Under the pieces are notes generated by a model. It saw only the letters and a list, made by a program, of their open reading frames with translations. It made no database searches and had not been told where the DNA came from. Source: Gammaproteobacteria bacterium (GTDB lineage Bacteria > Pseudomonadota > Gammaproteobacteria > SZUA-140). Taken from it: 64,000 bases of DNA. Shown piece by piece: positions 24,221-30,168 of the stretch. The stretch lies in the NCBI GenBank assembly GCA_026982565.1, contig JALSGV010000042.1, positions 11,956-75,955 on the forward strand, given 5' to 3'. How positions within the stretch are numbered: the stretch's first letter is position 1; the number at the start of each line of letters is the position of its first letter. The position numbers were made by a program, and so were the translations under genes.

Positions 24221-24733
24221 ATGAACACGGAAACCAAGTCAGCAACAACGACTCCCACCAGAGGCAATGCCCTGCAAAGTCGGCAGCGTGCCGCATTGAA
24301 CCCATTCGAGGAGATGGAGCGTCTCTTTCAAGGGCTGTTTCCCCGTGGCTGGGGGGGTCCGGCGCGTTGGGAATGGCCAGCGTGGGCCGATGTGGAAATG
24401 CCCTTCGAGGGGCGCATGCCCAAGGTGGATGTCGTGGATCGCGATGAAGAGATTCTGGTGCGTGCAGAACTGCCGGGAGTCAACAAGGACGACCTGGATA
24501 TTACACTGGCTGAAGACACGCTGACCATCAAGGCCAGCACCCGGCAGGAGAGCAAGGAAGAAAAGGGTGATTACCTGCGCCGTGAAATCACCCAGGGGTC
24601 TTTTGCCCGTACCATTCCGCTGCCCGCTGCAGTGCAGGGGGACGAGGCCAGGGCCAGCTTCAAGGATGGCGTGCTGGAGCTGACACTGCCCAAGGCCGCG
24701 CCCGCCAAGCGGCACAGCGTGAAGGTGGAATAG
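24221..24733 (+). CDS. Hsp20/alpha-crystallin family small heat-shock protein
   Basis: Alpha-crystallin domain (PKVDVVDRDEEILVRAELPGV...GVLELTLPK). ATG 24221 is chosen for its spacing from SD GGAGG at 24208-24212. Confidence 0.85.
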   Translation: MNTETKSATTTPTRGNALQSRQRAALNPFEEMERLFQGLFPRGWGGPARWEWPAWADVEMPFEGRMPKVDVVDRDEEILVRAELPGVNKDDLDITLAEDTLTIKASTRQESKEEKGDYLRREITQGSFARTIPLPAAVQGDEARASFKDGVLELTLPKAAPAKRHSVKVE

Positions 24734-24744
24734 GGCCGTTGGGG

Positions 24745-24772
24745 CGTGCCGCACCTCGGCAGGTGCGGCACG
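24745..24772 (+). other. perfect 12-bp stem / 4-nt loop hairpin between the two hsp20 genes
   Basis: CGTGCCGCACCT-CGGC-AGGTGCGGCACG. There is no T tract, so it may be an intercistronic stabiliser, processing site or attenuator. Confidence 0.5.
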
Positions 24773-24806
24773 AGGTTGCATCAAACGATGAATGAGGAGG
24801 GGAATC

Positions 24807-25295
24807 ATGTCGACACTGGAAGAACTGCGTGGAGGTCTGGGTCGCCTGTGGGACTCAATGGCGGAGGGGTGGCGTTATCTGGTGTCACGTGCTTCGGGCG
24901 CCTTGACTCGCTTCAAGCCCGCAAGGGAGCAGGATGATGACAATGTCCCTGTTGTCATCGGCAGTGGTTGGGGGTTGCTCACGGCAGAACTTTACGAGGA
25001 CGACGAGAGCGTCGAAATCCGCCTGGAAGCGCCCGGCATGGAGCCGGAAGAGTTCGATGTGACTATCTGCGACGACGTGTTGGTGGTGCGGGGCGAGAAA
25101 CGTTATCAGCAACAGCGTGACGTGGACGGATACCGTATCGCGGAATGCGCCTATGGCGCCTTCGAACGCGCCATACCATTGCCAGTGGGCGTGGATGCCG
25201 ATCATGTCAAGGCCAGGTATCGCCGCGGCGTCCTGCACATCAAGATGCCCAAGTCAGCGGTGAACCGCCCGCGACGCATCAGGATTTCTGGCTGA
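24807..25295 (+). CDS. Hsp20/alpha-crystallin family small heat-shock protein
   Basis: Alpha-crystallin domain (SVEIRLEAPGMEPEEFDV...GVLHIKMPK). ATG 24807 follows SD GGAGGGG. Confidence 0.85.
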   Translation: MSTLEELRGGLGRLWDSMAEGWRYLVSRASGALTRFKPAREQDDDNVPVVIGSGWGLLTAELYEDDESVEIRLEAPGMEPEEFDVTICDDVLVVRGEKRYQQQRDVDGYRIAECAYGAFERAIPLPVGVDADHVKARYRRGVLHIKMPKSAVNRPRRIRISG

Positions 25296-25375
25296 GGCCG
25301 GCCAGGGGATGGTCTGAATACTTACCACGCGTTTCAACCCGGTTAGTCAGGCAGTGGGTCGCAACAGTCAATACG

Positions 25376-26332
25376 ATGGAATTCAAGGACTATTACAAGA
25401 TCATGGGCGTCGCGCGCGACGCCACCCAGGACGAGATCAAGCGTGCGTATCGCAAACTGGCGCGCAAGTTTCATCCCGATGTCAGCAAGGAGGCCGATGC
25501 CGAGCAGCGCTTCAAGGAACTGGGTGAGGCCTATGAGGTGCTCAAGGACCCCGAGAAGCGGGCGGCCTATGACCGCCTGGGTGCTGACTGGAAGGCAGGT
25601 CAGGAATTCCATCCCCCGCCGGACTGGGATACGGGCTTTGAATTCAGCGGTGGTGGTTTTACGTCAGGTGATGCCCCCTTCAGTGATTTCTTTGAGTCAC
25701 TGTTCGGTCGGCGGGCAGGCATATATGGAGGCGCCCGGCGCCATGAGTACCGGACCCGTGGAGAGGATCACTTCGCCAGGATCCAGATCGATATGGAAGA
25801 TGCCTTTCACGGCGGCACTCGCACCGTGACCCTGCAGGCGCCTGAGACTACCCGCGATGGCCATGTGCGTTTGCGCCAGCGCAGCCTCAAGGTCAGGATT
25901 CCCAAAGGCATCATGCCGGGGCAGCAGATCCGCCTCAGAGGGCAGGGCGGCCATGGGGTCAATGGTCCTGAAGGCGACCTCTATCTCGAAGTCCATTTTC
26001 GCCCTCACCCGCTCTATCGGGTTGAGGGACGGGACATCTACATGGATGTGCCGGTGACGCCCACGGAGGCTGTGCTGGGGGCGCAGATTACTATTCCCAC
26101 CCCTTCGGGACTTGTCGATCTCAAGATTCCCCCGGGTTCGGGTGCGCGCCGCAAGTTGCGTCTCAAAGGCAAGGGGTTGCCCGGGAGGCCGCCTGGTGAT
26201 CTCTATGCCGTGCTCCAGATCGCCTTGCCACCGGCAGACAGTGAGGCGGCCAGGGCCGCTTACCGTCATTTGGCGGAGGTCATCCCGTTCAATCCCCGGC
26301 GTCATATGGGGGGGCATGATGAAAGAAGATAA
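25376..26332 (+). CDS. cbpA: curved-DNA-binding DnaJ-like co-chaperone
   Basis: J-domain from MEFKDYYKIMGVARDATQDEIKRAYRKLARKFHPD. No zinc-finger region, and cbpM follows. Confidence 0.85.
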   Translation: MEFKDYYKIMGVARDATQDEIKRAYRKLARKFHPDVSKEADAEQRFKELGEAYEVLKDPEKRAAYDRLGADWKAGQEFHPPPDWDTGFEFSGGGFTSGDAPFSDFFESLFGRRAGIYGGARRHEYRTRGEDHFARIQIDMEDAFHGGTRTVTLQAPETTRDGHVRLRQRSLKVRIPKGIMPGQQIRLRGQGGHGVNGPEGDLYLEVHFRPHPLYRVEGRDIYMDVPVTPTEAVLGAQITIPTPSGLVDLKIPPGSGARRKLRLKGKGLPGRPPGDLYAVLQIALPPADSEAARAAYRHLAEVIPFNPRRHMGGHDERR

Positions 26333-26642
26333 GAGCTTGCCCTTGCTGACAGGCGATGTCCTGGATGACTCAGTCTGGTTGAGTTTCGGCGAGCTGGCGC
26401 GCATCTGTTCCCTGGACGCCGAGTGTCTCATCGCAATGGTCGATGAGGGCGTATTGGAGCCGCGCGGCATGGAATTGCAGGCGTGGCGCTTTCACCCTGC
26501 CTCCATTACACGCGTCCAGGTGGTGTTGCGCCTGCGGCGTGACCTGGGCGTCAATCTTGCCGGTGCGGCACTGGTCCTCGATCTTCTCGATGAGATTGAG
26601 GGGCTGCAGGCCCGTCTGCGCCACCTGAATATAGAAGACTGA
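26316..26642 (+). CDS. cbpM: chaperone modulatory protein CbpM (MerR-like fold)
   Basis: ~108 aa; overlaps the cbpA 3' end by 17 nt, which is the typical cbpAM arrangement. Confidence 0.7.
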   Translation: MMKEDKSLPLLTGDVLDDSVWLSFGELARICSLDAECLIAMVDEGVLEPRGMELQAWRFHPASITRVQVVLRLRRDLGVNLAGAALVLDLLDEIEGLQARLRHLNIED

Positions 26643-26783: not shown

Positions 26784-27968
26784 ATGATTGATGGTATTTT
26801 GGGGTTGTCCGGGTGGGAGAAGGTCGTCGCGGTGCTCGTGATGACCCATATCACCATTATCAGTGTCACGGTGTTTCTGCACCGCCATCAGGCCCATCGC
26901 GCGCTTGATCTGCATCCAGTGCTCAGCCATTTTTTCCGCTTCTGGCTGTGGTTGACCACCGGCATTCAGACCAAGGCCTGGGTTGCCATCCACAGAAAGC
27001 ACCATGCCAAGTGCGAAACGGAGGATGACCCCCACAGTCCCCAGGTACTGGGCATCAAGAAAGTACTGTGGGAAGGAGCGGAGCTCTACCGGGAAGCGTC
27101 CAGGAACGAGAAGACTCTGGAACAATATGGACGCGGCACACCCGCTGACTGGCTGGAACGTCATATCTATGACGCGCACAGTTATTGCGGCCTGGTTCTG
27201 ATGTTCATCGTGGATATCCTCTTGTTTGGCATTGCCGGTATCTCCGTATGGGCCGTGCAGATGCTGTGGATACCCCTGTTTGCTGCAGGTGTCATCAATG
27301 GCATTGGGCATTGGTGGGGCTACCGAAACTATGAAGTGCCCGATGCCTCGACCAATATCGTTCCCTGGGGGATTCTCATCGGTGGGGAGGAGCTGCACAA
27401 CAACCATCATACCTTTGCCACCTCGGCCAAATTGTCCGCCAAGTGGTGGGAGCTGGATATCGGTTGGATGTACATCCGCCTGTTTCAGGCATTGGGATTG
27501 GCCTCTGTCAACAAGCGCCTGACCCGGCCACGCATCGATCCGGCCAAGACCACTGTGGATATGGATACGGTGCGCGCTGTGGTCAATCACCGCTTTCAGG
27601 TCATGGCCCATTATTGCCGCGACGTATTGCACCAGGTGCACCGCGACGAGTTGAGCAAGGCGGATGATGCCTCTGACCGTGAACGCCTGAAAAAAGTGCG
27701 CCGCCTGCTGGTCAGGGAGGCATCTCTTATCGACGAATCCGCCCAGGTAAAGCTCCATGCGGTGCTGAGTGACAACGATCGCCTGGAGACCGTCTATCGC
27801 TTCAAGCTGGAGCTGCAGGAGTTGTGGAAGCGCTCTGCTGAATCCAATGAAAAAATGCTCCAGGCCTTGCAGGAGTGGTGTCGGCGGGCTGAAGCCAGCG
27901 GCATTCGTACCCTGGAGGAGTTTGCGCAGGTTCTGCAGGGTTATTCCCTGCGTACAGCAGCATCCTGA
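26784..27968 (+). CDS. membrane fatty-acid (acyl-CoA/acyl-lipid delta-9-type) desaturase with ~100-aa helical C-terminal extension
   Basis: Histidine boxes HRHQAH, HRKHH and HNNHH. The ORF is listed from GTG 26769; ATG 26784 has the better SD spacing. Confidence 0.85.
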   Translation: MIDGILGLSGWEKVVAVLVMTHITIISVTVFLHRHQAHRALDLHPVLSHFFRFWLWLTTGIQTKAWVAIHRKHHAKCETEDDPHSPQVLGIKKVLWEGAELYREASRNEKTLEQYGRGTPADWLERHIYDAHSYCGLVLMFIVDILLFGIAGISVWAVQMLWIPLFAAGVINGIGHWWGYRNYEVPDASTNIVPWGILIGGEELHNNHHTFATSAKLSAKWWELDIGWMYIRLFQALGLASVNKRLTRPRIDPAKTTVDMDTVRAVVNHRFQVMAHYCRDVLHQVHRDELSKADDASDRERLKKVRRLLVREASLIDESAQVKLHAVLSDNDRLETVYRFKLELQELWKRSAESNEKMLQALQEWCRRAEASGIRTLEEFAQVLQGYSLRTAAS

Positions 27969-28079
27969 AACTGTCACAAACCCCTCTGTTACACCTTGTT
28001 GTTATTGTGTGATTATGTATGTCATTGTTAAATAGTGATAATTTCTTACTAAATCACTTAGTTTTTGTGATGAAAAGGC

Positions 28080-28108
28080 TTGACCTTAATCCTTCCATTT
28101 TGTAATGT
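28080..28108 (+). promoter_or_regulatory. sigma-70-type promoter of small ORF 1
   Basis: TTGACC (28080-28085), 17 nt, TAATGT (28103-28108). The -35 and its flanks are conserved in copy 2. Confidence 0.5.
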
Positions 28109-28175
28109 TTTAGATGTAGTCCAAAACTGTGACTTGATCAAAACAACACATATTGCTAAATACAGGAGGGTAAAC

Positions 28176-28289
28176 ATGAGCAATGACAACTGGATTGATA
28201 TCAGTAAAACGGACACAATCATCTGCGTAGGCAGCCTGGGTACGTGGGCAGTGCTGATGTATCTCGCATCGACAGTGCTGGCCCTCTAG
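28176..28289 (+). CDS. 37-aa hydrophobic peptide (MSNDNWIDISKTDTIICVGSLGTWAVLMYLASTVLAL)
   Basis: SD AGGAGGG lies 5 nt upstream. It has its own promoter and terminator, and a paralog lies 591 bp downstream. The listed 69-aa ORF from TTG 28080 starts in the -35 box. Confidence 0.5.
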   Translation: MSNDNWIDISKTDTIICVGSLGTWAVLMYLASTVLAL

Positions 28290-28340
28290 ACTGAAGGATC
28301 AGTCAGCTGCTTCGTGTGTTGAAGCAGGGTATCCAACATA

Positions 28341-28370
28341 AAAAGGCCAGATGACTCATCTGGCCTTTTT
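28341..28370 (+). terminator. intrinsic terminator after small ORF 1
   Basis: AAAA-GGCCAGATGA-C-TCATCTGGCC-TTTTT. Confidence 0.8.
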
Positions 28371-28423
28371 GGTAATGCACATTACAGGGTTGCGCAGCAG
28401 CAATGGGGGGTGCGCTTCACGGT

Positions 28424-28550
28424 ATCCAATGAAAAAATGCTCCGTGCATTGCAGAAATGATGTTGTTGGGAAAAGTCCAGGGGTATCCCCGCTCCGAAGG
28501 AAATGTCTCGCGTCCTATATGGTTATTCCCAATGGACGGCAGCATCCTGA
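28424..28550 (+). pseudogene. decayed relic of the desaturase 3' end
   Basis: Aligns without gaps to 27842-27968. In the ancestral frame it reads SNEKMLRALQK-stop, then GYS..TAAS-stop. The middle part is roughly half identical. Confidence 0.55.
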
Positions 28551-28662
28551 AATTGTCGCATGCCCCTTTATAACCACTTAATTTCTATAAGGTATTTGGT
28601 ATCTTATTGTTAAATATTATAAATTCCTGACTAAATTCCTTAGTTATTGTGATGAAAAAGGC

Positions 28663-28691
28663 TTGACCTTAAGCCCTTGCTTTCGTAGTGT
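28663..28691 (+). promoter_or_regulatory. sigma-70-type promoter of small ORF 2
   Basis: TTGACC (28663-28668), 17 nt, TAGTGT (28686-28691). Confidence 0.45.
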
Positions 28692-28766
28692 CTAAGGCGT
28701 AGTCCAAAACGTGTACTCGTCAGAACGACATTTCTTGCCATTAAATATAAGAGGGGGAGGGTAATC

Positions 28767-28877
28767 ATGAGCAACAACTGGATCGATATCAGTAAAACGG
28801 ACGGAATCATCTGCATCGTAAGCCTGGGTGTGTGGGCGGTACTGTGGTATCTGGCTGCGACGGCCCTGGCTTTGTAG
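28767..28877 (+). CDS. 36-aa hydrophobic peptide (MSNNWIDISKTDGIICIVSLGVWAVLWYLAATALAL)
   Basis: SD GGGGGAGGG. 29/36 residues are identical to small ORF 1 by hand alignment. Not in the ORF track (under 60 aa). Confidence 0.5.
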   Translation: MSNNWIDISKTDGIICIVSLGVWAVLWYLAATALAL

Positions 28878-28922
28878 GGAATGAGACAGTCACTGCTCGC
28901 AGTTCGAAGCAGGGCACCCAAT

Positions 28923-28955
28923 AAAAAAGGCCAGATGAAATATCTGGCCTTTTTT
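28923..28955. terminator. bidirectional intrinsic terminator (small ORF 2 / rpmG)
   Basis: AAAAAA-GGCCAGAT-GAAAT-ATCTGGCC-TTTTTT. Confidence 0.8.
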
Positions 28956-28983
28956 CGGTTTGGCGTTTTGGGTTCGCGCGAAA

Positions 28984-29139
28984 CTATTTGATCTTGGCCT
29001 CCTTATAGAGGACATGCTTGCGTACGACTGGATCGAATTTCTTGATTTCCATCTTTCCCGGCATGGTGCGCTTGTTTTTGTCGGTGGTATAGAAATGTCC
29101 GGTTCCGGCGCTCGATACTAATCTGATTTTTTCACGCAT
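28984..29139 (-). CDS. rpmG: 50S ribosomal protein L33
   Basis: Hand translation: [51 protein letters not shown] (51 aa). Confidence 0.9.
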
Positions 29140-29150
29140 GGTCAGGCTCC

Positions 29151-29387
29151 TTAGACTTTTTCGCCACGCTTGCGCATGTCGGCCAGCACCTGGTCGATGC
29201 CCAGCTTGTCGATGATGCGCATGCCCTTGGAGCTGACGCGCAGGCGCACCCAGCGGTTTTCGCTCTCCACCCAGAAGCGGTGGGTGTTGAGGTTGGGCAG
29301 AAAGCGCCGTTTGGTTTTGTTGTTGGCATGGGAGACGTTATTGCCGACCATGGGCCGCTTACCCGTTACCTGACATACCCTAGACAT
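29151..29387 (-). CDS. rpmB: 50S ribosomal protein L28
   Basis: [33 protein letters not shown]... (78 aa), within the listed ORF 29151..29567. Confidence 0.95.
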
Positions 29388-29475
29388 CTTGACTATCCTC
29401 CAGCAGGACTCCACAAAGCAGGCTTTTATACCAGAATCGGGTTCTGCTGGCAAGTGATCCCGCGCTTTCGGTCGT

Positions 29476-30168
29476 CTACAAGAGTCCGCGCTGCGCAAAG
29501 GAGACCACTTCGCCATCGCCGACGACAAGGTGGTCCAGCACCCGGATCTCCACCAGGGCGAGGGCATCCCGCAAGTGACGGGTCAGGGAATGGTCCGCCT
29601 GGCTGGGTTCCGCCACCCCCGAGGGGTGATTGTGCACCAGGATCACGGCGGCTGCGTTGATATGGAGGGCCTGTTTGACGACCTCCCGCGGATGGACGCT
29701 GGCGCCGTTGATGGTGCCGCGGAACATCTCCTCGAAACCCAGCACGCGATGGCGGTTGTCGAGAAACAGGCAGGCAAACACCTCGTAGGGCCGGTCTCGC
29801 AGCAGGCTGACCAGGTAATCCCTCGAATCTTCAGGGCTTGTCAGGGTGGCGTCGTGTTGCAGGGTTTCCCACAAATGGCGCCGGCTCATTTCCAGGACCG
29901 CCTGCAACTGGGCGTATTTGGCCGTTCCCAGGCCGGGGCTGCTGCAGAAACGTTGCTGGTCGGCCTTGAAAAGCGCGCGCAGGCCGCCGTATTCGTGTAA
30001 TAATTGCCGCGCAAGATCCACGGCGGTCTTCCCCTTGCAGCCGGTTCTGAGAAAAATGGCCAGCAGCTCGGCGTCGGAAAGGGCCTGCGCGCCCCTCAGC
30101 AGCAGCCGTTCGCGGGGACGTTCCTCCTTGGGCCAACTGGTAATCGGCATGTTTGACCTCCCTGTCAA
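29476..30168 (-). CDS. radC: RadC-family JAMM-domain protein
   Basis: Motifs HNHPSG and ERLL..G...LSDAELLAI. The start could be 30168 or 30150. Confidence 0.85.

Follow-up and report, generated by a model that had tools for sequence, protein, structure and literature searches.

The stretch of DNA considered here, hereafter the window, comprises 64,000 nucleotides (nt) of contig JALSGV010000042.1 (positions 11,956 to 75,955 of the forward strand; GenBank assembly GCA_026982565.1) and belongs to a gammaproteobacterium of the lineage SZUA-140. Between desA, which encodes a membrane desaturase, and rpmG, which encodes ribosomal protein L33, it holds two small genes, A and B, whose products are hydrophobic peptides of 37 and 36 amino acids (aa). 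Judged from their substitution pattern, both open reading frames (ORFs) are real protein-coding genes under purifying selection, and each appears to be the core of a module that begins with an upstream block, continues with a sigma-70-type promoter and a leader of ~60-68 nt that is unstructured and carries a very strong Shine-Dalgarno (SD) sequence, and ends, behind the ORF, with an intrinsic terminator. The parts of the two modules, and the gene remnant between them, are the following (coordinates of the window):

28015-28079, plus strand: conserved block of 65 nt preceding promoter A, candidate for the binding of a regulator
28080-28108, plus strand: predicted promoter A, with -35 TTGACC (28080-28085), a 17-nt spacer and -10 TAATGT (28103-28108); predicted transcription start site (TSS) at ~28114-28116
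28114-28175, plus strand: leader A, ~60 nt, with box GTAGTCCAAAAC (28116-28127) and SD AGGAGGG (28164-28170), the ATG following 5 nt on
28176-28289, plus strand: peptide gene A, MSNDNWIDISKTDTIICVGSLGTWAVLMYLASTVLAL, 37 aa; the sole forward frame without stops, called as a gene in public collections
28292-28327, plus strand: stem-loops in the 3' untranslated region (3' UTR) of copy A, ACTGAaggaTCAGT and CTGCTTC...GAAGCAG
28340-28370, no strand assigned: terminator A, A5-GGCCAGATG-act-CATCTGGCC-T5, hairpin at 28345-28370
28385-28550, plus strand: relic of the desA 3' end, copied by duplication, a pseudogene fragment between both peptide genes
28598-28662, plus strand: upstream block of copy B, 65 nt, 79% identity to block A
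28663-28691, plus strand: predicted promoter B, with -35 TTGACC (28663-28668), a 17-nt spacer and -10 TAGTGT (28686-28691); predicted TSS at ~28697-28699
28697-28766, plus strand: leader B, ~68 nt, with box GTAGTCCAAAAC (28699-28710) and SD GAGGGGGAGGG (28751-28761)
28767-28877, plus strand: peptide gene B, MSNNWIDISKTDGIICIVSLGVWAVLWYLAATALAL, 36 aa
28924-28955, no strand assigned: terminator B, A6-GGCCAGATG-aaat-ATCTGGCC-T6, hairpin at 28929-28955, shared with the convergent rpmG-rpmB operon

The evidence for translation lies in the way the copies of the gene differ from one another. Among seven copies, the variable sites are distributed over the three codon positions as 16/11/29, and the pairwise ratios of nonsynonymous to synonymous substitution rates (dN/dS) range from 0.03 to 0.31, with dS near saturation; for peptide B and its orthologue at the related locus L001, dN is 0.06 and dS is saturated. 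The annotated frame contains no stops, and its ratio of nonsynonymous to synonymous differences (pN/pS), summed over pairs, is 0.19. Four other frames contain 3 to 17 stops and have pN/pS values of >1.3. The mirror antisense frame also lacks stops and has a pN/pS of 0.38, as expected for a mirror artefact, since it shares its third positions with the sense frame; two antisense ORFs of 93 aa (28640-28921, minus strand) and 54 aa (28058-28222, minus strand) were rejected as such artefacts, their extent being unequal and their selection weaker than that of the sense frame. Absence of purifying selection, which the earlier description of the two genes from the letters alone (the sequence-only reading) had named beforehand as a result that would tell against them, is ruled out by the pN/pS value together with Fisher tests on single pairs (p = 6e-3 to 6e-10). 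The same reading had suspected that the 69-aa ORF listed at this place is mis-started, and its start is indeed the TTG of the -35 box.

The two peptides share 29 invariant columns of 36, as had been counted before and as the alignment confirmed. Residues 1 to 13 form a conserved acidic polar head (D-N-W-I-D-I-S-x-x-D) with a net charge of -2, and residues 14 to 37 are hydrophobic and make up a transmembrane helix with an invariant W24 and a face of small residues; AlphaFold2 predicts a single helix over residues 3 to 36 (pLDDT 84). Throughout the family, M1, W6, D8, I9, S10, D13, I16, W24, L27 and A36 are invariant. The head is the best-conserved part: the two most distant copies (L089 and L091) are identical at residues 1 to 19 and differ in their transmembrane halves. 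A lipoprotein was rejected, as there is no lipobox and Cys17 is variable. The size of the peptides and the succession of a conserved N-terminal and a more variable C-terminal segment superficially resemble leader and core of a precursor that gives rise to a secreted or modified peptide, for example a ribosomally synthesized and post-translationally modified peptide (RiPP), a bacteriocin or a signalling peptide. However, the "core" is a plain transmembrane helix, the variability of Cys17 and the lack of a double-glycine or other cleavage motif argue against processing, and neither of the two genomic contexts in which the family occurs has modification, export or immunity genes nearby; we regard a precursor as the most improbable of the explanations considered here.

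With respect to their origin, the two genes had been described as merely paralogous mini-genes 591 bp apart. The coordinates and the start-to-start distance hold, but the relation is closer: the genes are halves of a tandem duplication of ~582 bp that includes the 3' end of desA. Alignment of both halves (27803-28384 to 28385-28966) shows that the unit begins within desA, ~165 nt 5' of the stop codon, and ends just past the terminator. The last 126 nt of the copied desA tail (28425-28550) are still codon-colinear with desA (69% nucleotide identity, 0 indels) and carry an in-frame TGA, and 20 of the 41 residues of the translation (SNEKMLRALQK*CCWEK...TAAS*) are changed. Hence, the peptide retained 29 of 36 residues while the co-duplicated desA tail decayed over the same time span, which provides an internal control for the action of selection. 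The relic is also useful for timing the duplication, as a neutral clock. The promoter-upstream motif and the terminator motif (GGCCAGAT/ATCTGGCC, common to both copies) occur exactly twice each in the 64 kb, with 0 occurrences expected, and therefore the repeat is not due to chance; it is no assembly artefact either, because independent contigs from three vent-metagenome sequencing runs span the tandem layout. A related strain in another sample (run X3, covering window positions 28168-28671) has the same tandem layout with 34 substitutions and 7 gaps, and its peptide A carries an apparent G19F besides M28W and S32A, which also occur elsewhere in the family. The B-type copies of the window and of the related loci L001 and L087 share a derived -10 hexamer (TAGTGT), a longer leader and V23, and a faint trace of the desA tail is visible in the spacer of L001. 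Since the B-type copies have derived characters in common, the duplication is older than the divergence of these lineages, which have retained both copies ever since.

The region had also been described as an AT-rich island. The drop in GC content is real (0.38-0.43 locally versus 0.60 for the window), but the region is not a foreign island: the GC content at third codon positions is 0.68 and 0.72 in the peptide ORFs versus 0.70 in desA. AT-richness is thus a property of the noncoding regulatory DNA and not of the ORFs, and, as the ORFs are host-like in this respect, nothing hints at recent foreign DNA.

Closer inspection of the noncoding DNA revealed a graded conservation. Among nine copies, mean pairwise identity is 79% in the terminator, 76% in the promoter, 74% in the ORF and 72% in the 65-nt upstream block, and falls to 55% in the leader, 51% in the DNA further upstream and 44% in the 3' UTR. 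The upstream block has the consensus ..ATTGTTAAATA..TAATTCCTGACTAAATCCCTTAGTTTTTGTGATGAAAAAGGC and contains two half-repeats (TTTCTTA and CACTTAG in block A; consensus TTCCTGA / CCCTTAG); it is probably the binding site of a transcription factor, and we treat it as a candidate for this. The 11 desA-linked copies that have the promoter region on the contig all show the promoter layout TTGACC-17-TA(A/G)TGT, and L089 deviates at the -10. A generic consensus scan overlooked both promoters of the window, because the -10 hexamers match TATAAT at only 3/6 positions, albeit including all key positions (T-12, A-11, T-7). A sigma-32 promoter was considered and rejected by hand, since a CCAT-type -10 would lie only ~8 nt from CTTGAC and 13-15 nt are required. 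The SD motif AGGAGG is found in every copy. The -35 box with its 17-nt spacer, the conserved leader box and the very strong SD that the sequence-only reading had noticed are therefore all in place at both genes, and so are the intrinsic terminators, each built on a 9-bp GC-rich stem that is lengthened to 15 bp by A/U pairs (RNAfold) and followed by T5 or T6. By sequence, each copy has promoter-like and terminator elements of its own, and independent transcription of each copy is plausible. RNA sequencing runs were searched for this sequence, and none contained it. Read-through from desA into copy A may occur as well, because no terminator-like site was found between them.

These features bear on the idea, raised in the sequence-only reading, that the peptides are akin to type I toxins, which would depolarise or permeabilise the membrane and would be held in check by an unrecognised RNA antitoxin or another kind of post-transcriptional control. 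A small hydrophobic peptide, encoded by stand-alone genes in tandem, narrow in range and without a family match, fits this idea, and the whole transcript of copy A folds better than its shuffles (z -4.5). The transcript of copy B, however, does not (z -1.0), and a scan of the minus strand of 12 copies for sigma-70-like sites revealed no position-conserved antisense promoter, with 4 of the 12 lacking any site at the threshold used. The structure conserved among 11 transcripts (RNAalifold) comprises the terminator and, within the ORF, a helix of 4 bp; the consensus contains no leader structure, and sequestration of the SD is absent from it. The leader, usually the region of pairing with the antitoxin, is only 55% conserved. 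Furthermore, the genes have a strong SD and a good promoter, the peptides have an acidic head and mostly lack a basic tail, Pfam and PADLOC gave no match to a toxin family, and the genes keep a stable syntenic position with both paralogues under purifying selection. A strongly translated and apparently unrepressed gene in two copies would be hard to reconcile with a toxin. Of the four hallmarks of type I toxin-antitoxin systems that can be looked for at the sequence level, the small hydrophobic transmembrane peptide is there and the other three are not; the analogy has thus not stood up, and a toxin of this type seems to us quite unlikely.

The terminators deserve a separate look. The 7-bp core stem GGCCAGA/TCTGGCC is invariant in 11/11 aligned copies, even where the peptides are only 46-49% identical, and the eighth, innermost pair is the only one that covaries (U-A to C-G). 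This invariance exceeds the need of a generic terminator and persists where the synonymous sites of the ORF are saturated. Terminator A is symmetric and therefore potentially bidirectional, and terminator B is bidirectional as far as can be read from its sequence. A consensus terminator scan listed neither hairpin, probably because the flanking A and T runs pair with each other, which extends the stem and takes up the T run. Two-copy loci of the L001 lineage keep the hairpin of terminator A and have lost its T run (GGCCTTCAA; L001 4174-4200, L086 3174-3200, L087 215-240), and therefore A and B may be co-transcribed there, unlike in the window, where the T5 is kept. A stem-loop in the 3' UTR, whose sequence differs from lineage to lineage (CTGCTTC/GAAGCAG, GCCTGG/CCAGGC or CCTGC/GCAGG), recurs in most desA-linked copies, including a further one in the window at 28895-28915.

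Taken together, the invariant core stem and this recurring second hairpin could point to an RNA as the functional product, that is, a small RNA or a dual-function messenger acting through its terminator hairpin and 3' stem-loop, with the ORF being secondary. Yet the ORF varies between copies as a translated gene does, which contradicts a conserved RNA in place of the ORF, the other outcome that had been set against the peptides beforehand. In addition, Rfam, searched with positions 27500-29500 at permissive E-values, yielded nothing but terminator-like noise that fell short of the gathering scores, no structure beyond the terminator is conserved, and the 3' UTR is the least conserved segment, its hairpin being absent from L089 and L091. 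An RNA function is therefore very improbable.

Relatives were collected by looking up clusters and by scanning collections of genomes and metagenomes for patterns. Including the two of the window, 14 copies were found in vent metagenomes and metagenome-assembled genomes (MAGs): window A and B, L001 A and B (Gammaproteobacteria MAG S146_68), L086A, L087 A and B, L002, L003, L004, L085, L088, and the distant L089 and L091 (MAG SZUA-140; 46-49% identity). All come from uncultured bacteria, and several are labelled as hydrothermal-vent metagenomes. A phmmer search of 1.84 billion representative proteins returned the peptide's own cluster and one other 37-aa peptide, the remaining matches being repeat-protein artefacts, and a homology search with the 69-aa ORF returned only the peptide of the window itself. 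Searches of Pfam, NCBIfam, PADLOC and PDB sequences with the peptides or their alignment yielded nothing significant, apart from sub-threshold DUF6405 noise in 3/11 members. Together with the Rfam result, this agrees with the earlier statement that the peptide belongs to no described family. Viral contigs were scanned and contained no relative, and therefore a phage origin is unsupported.

The two neighbours of the tandem genes are:

26784-27968, plus strand: desA, for a membrane fatty-acid (phospholipid) desaturase of the DesA family whose tail is an ISL3-like alpha bundle; upstream neighbour
28984-29139, minus strand: rpmG, ribosomal protein L33; convergent downstream neighbour and ancient syntenic partner of desA

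The assignment of desA is based on matches to NCBIfam NF049918 (E = 1e-187), to NF049919 for the tail (E = 1e-36) and to Pfam FA_desaturase; the start codon (ATG 26784) was taken from the L001 orthologue, which begins with MIDGILG, the mechanical ORF starting at GTG 26769. The tail (27580-27965, residues ~270-393) also matches the ISL3 transposase family PF01610 (E = 6e-14), NF049919 being named "DesA/ISL3 alpha bundle tail", so that one domain is common to a membrane desaturase and a transposase family. The locus further comprises genes for HSP20, cbpA, cbpM, rpmB and radC. Just upstream of desA (24222-26642) lies a heat-shock-type cluster of two HSP20 genes, cbpA (DnaJ-like) and cbpM (MerR_2); L002 and L003 share this gene order and have, in addition, a thioredoxin gene ahead of desA that is absent from the window.

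The history of the junction was followed in a comparison set of 80 loci (L005-L084) from Gamma- and Betaproteobacteria with DesA orthologues of 52-62% identity. Very often, desA is followed by convergent rpmG-rpmB, with a gap of 46-85 nt that holds a bidirectional terminator of variable sequence (for example, L005 4188-4243 and L049 4167-4232). In the clade of the window, the gap is ~430 nt and contains one peptide gene (L002, L003, L085, L088), and in the two-gene loci (window, L001/L087) it is ~1 kb. As the junction is ancient and normally consists of a terminator gap only, the peptide gene is a lineage-specific addition. Of the 14 copies, 12 lie between desA and rpmG, all from this narrow clade, whose junction predates the gene. 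The other two, L089 and L091, follow a gene for a 179-aa protein and precede a MotA/ExbB-like gene, with genes for a dynamin-like GTPase and a vWA-like protein nearby; their promoter layout is similar and their terminator stem identical to those of the desA-linked copies. The presence of these copies at an unrelated locus implies that the module is autonomous and not strictly tied to desA. L085, L088, L089 and L091 have a GC content of ~0.485 and come from the same or sister metagenomes, and therefore one organism may carry one desA-linked and one dispersed copy.

Which function is compatible with this picture? Tentatively, and with somewhat less than even confidence, we regard the peptides as a new family of small inner-membrane proteins that span the membrane once and are regulated, probably accessory to or modulating a larger membrane protein. 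In our model, the peptide would insert into the inner membrane, probably with the N terminus outside and the C terminus inside, since the head is acidic and the copies of L089 and L091 carry K or R near the C terminus (K/R34). Helix and acidic head would then dock onto the larger membrane protein in the manner of AcrZ, MgtS, PmrR, CydX and KdpF. A regulator bound at the upstream block would set the expression, plausibly in a membrane or temperature stress response. DesA is the first candidate for the partner, because its gene is immediately upstream with no intervening terminator and 12/14 copies are found at this place. The specific link to DesA, drawn from position, is nevertheless unlikely, and that the peptide is a dedicated small subunit or regulator of the phospholipid desaturase, with two paralogues under slightly different promoters tuning unsaturation, is a doubtful extension of it.

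Several observations weigh against our preferred model and, above all, against DesA as the partner. Charge is the sole guide to the probable membrane orientation. The tie to DesA is one of position only, and the desA/rpmG synteny long predates the peptide. A hidden Markov model of the peptide found 0 homologues among the six-frame ORFs of the 80 DesA-orthologue loci, and no small transmembrane ORF preceded by an SD was found downstream of desA in the same loci. The copies at L089 (1171-1349) and L091 (5002-5180; distant member MSGDNWIDISKMDGLIIVG...) are unlinked to desA and adjoin unrelated genes, namely those for the dynamin-like GTPase and the MotA/ExbB-like protein. Furthermore, the family is tiny, with two clusters among the 1.84 billion representatives, so that co-occurrence statistics are impossible. 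A search of the literature for small proteins tied to bacterial desaturases revealed nothing relevant.

It is also imaginable that the protein has the bilayer itself as its target, or serves a general response to membrane or temperature stress, with no dedicated partner and unrelated to DesA, its position being a historical accident of a gene that inserted into a permissive convergent intergenic gap. The ancient desA-rpmG gap, which otherwise holds a terminator only, a module with its own promoter and terminator, the recurrence of the same terminator at the unrelated locus, and neighbours with roles in stress or membrane remodelling in both contexts (two HSP20 genes, cbpA and cbpM in one, the dynamin-like GTPase and the MotA/ExbB-like gene in the other) would be consistent with this. 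An invariant polar motif (W6, D8, I9, S10, D13) is, however, more typical of a specific contact, and the linkage to desA in 12/14 copies also speaks against an accident. Action on the bilayer is rather unlikely in our view, if the least so of the alternatives to a small accessory or modulator protein.

Annotation misses many small membrane proteins, and partners are known for few of them. The locus described here offers a clean new family that is validated by selection and comes with an internal neutral control, the decayed desA fragment. The origin of the family can be dated as an addition to the ancient desA/rpmG junction, with two paralogues long retained, and the conserved upstream block could lead to the identity of the regulator. 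Its reach is limited, as the family is distributed very narrowly among uncultured vent Gammaproteobacteria. Modulation of DesA by the peptide, if real, would add a new layer of membrane-fluidity control and would be the first case of a bacterial membrane desaturase controlled by a small protein, by which unsaturation might be tuned to the rapid swings of temperature or oxygen at hydrothermal vents. If the peptide has no role in DesA function, it would still be a good case of a young orphan gene reaching fixation.

A comparison with known systems places the peptides as follows. With ldrABCD/rdl, ibs/sib, zorO/orzO and tisB/istR, they share the organization in stand-alone genes for small hydrophobic peptides, the narrow distribution and, as in the tandem arrays of these type I systems, the duplication together with flanking regulatory DNA. 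In contrast to them, there is no conserved signal for an antisense or divergent RNA and no leader that sequesters the SD, the leader itself is poorly conserved, the head is acidic and not basic, and no match to the Hok, Ldr, Ibs, TisB, ShoB or Fst families exists. A short acidic N-terminal tail with one hydrophobic helix behind it can insert with the N terminus outside without a signal peptide, as in the coat protein of phage Pf3. The same succession of acidic tail and single helix is found here, and the analogy is confined to membrane insertion, as there is neither homology nor a phage context, the basic C-terminal anchor is missing in most copies, and the topology of our peptides is a predicted one.

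AcrZ, MgtS, MgrB, PmrR, CydX and KdpF are small inner-membrane proteins of proteobacteria with regulatory or accessory functions. Those of the CydX and KdpF type are often encoded beside, or co-transcribed with, the membrane enzyme they serve, and MgtS and AcrZ are separately regulated by stress. Unlike these proteins, the peptides described here have an acidic N-terminal head and no charged C-terminal tail, are encoded by two long-retained paralogues, have been found only in uncultured vent Gammaproteobacteria, and have a partner that is a candidate by position; there is no sequence similarity, and the likeness is one of class and not of homology. In this sense they resemble AcrZ, MgtS, MgrB, PmrR, CydX and KdpF in having fewer than 50 residues, one transmembrane helix, a short conserved polar segment, a strong SD and a narrow range.

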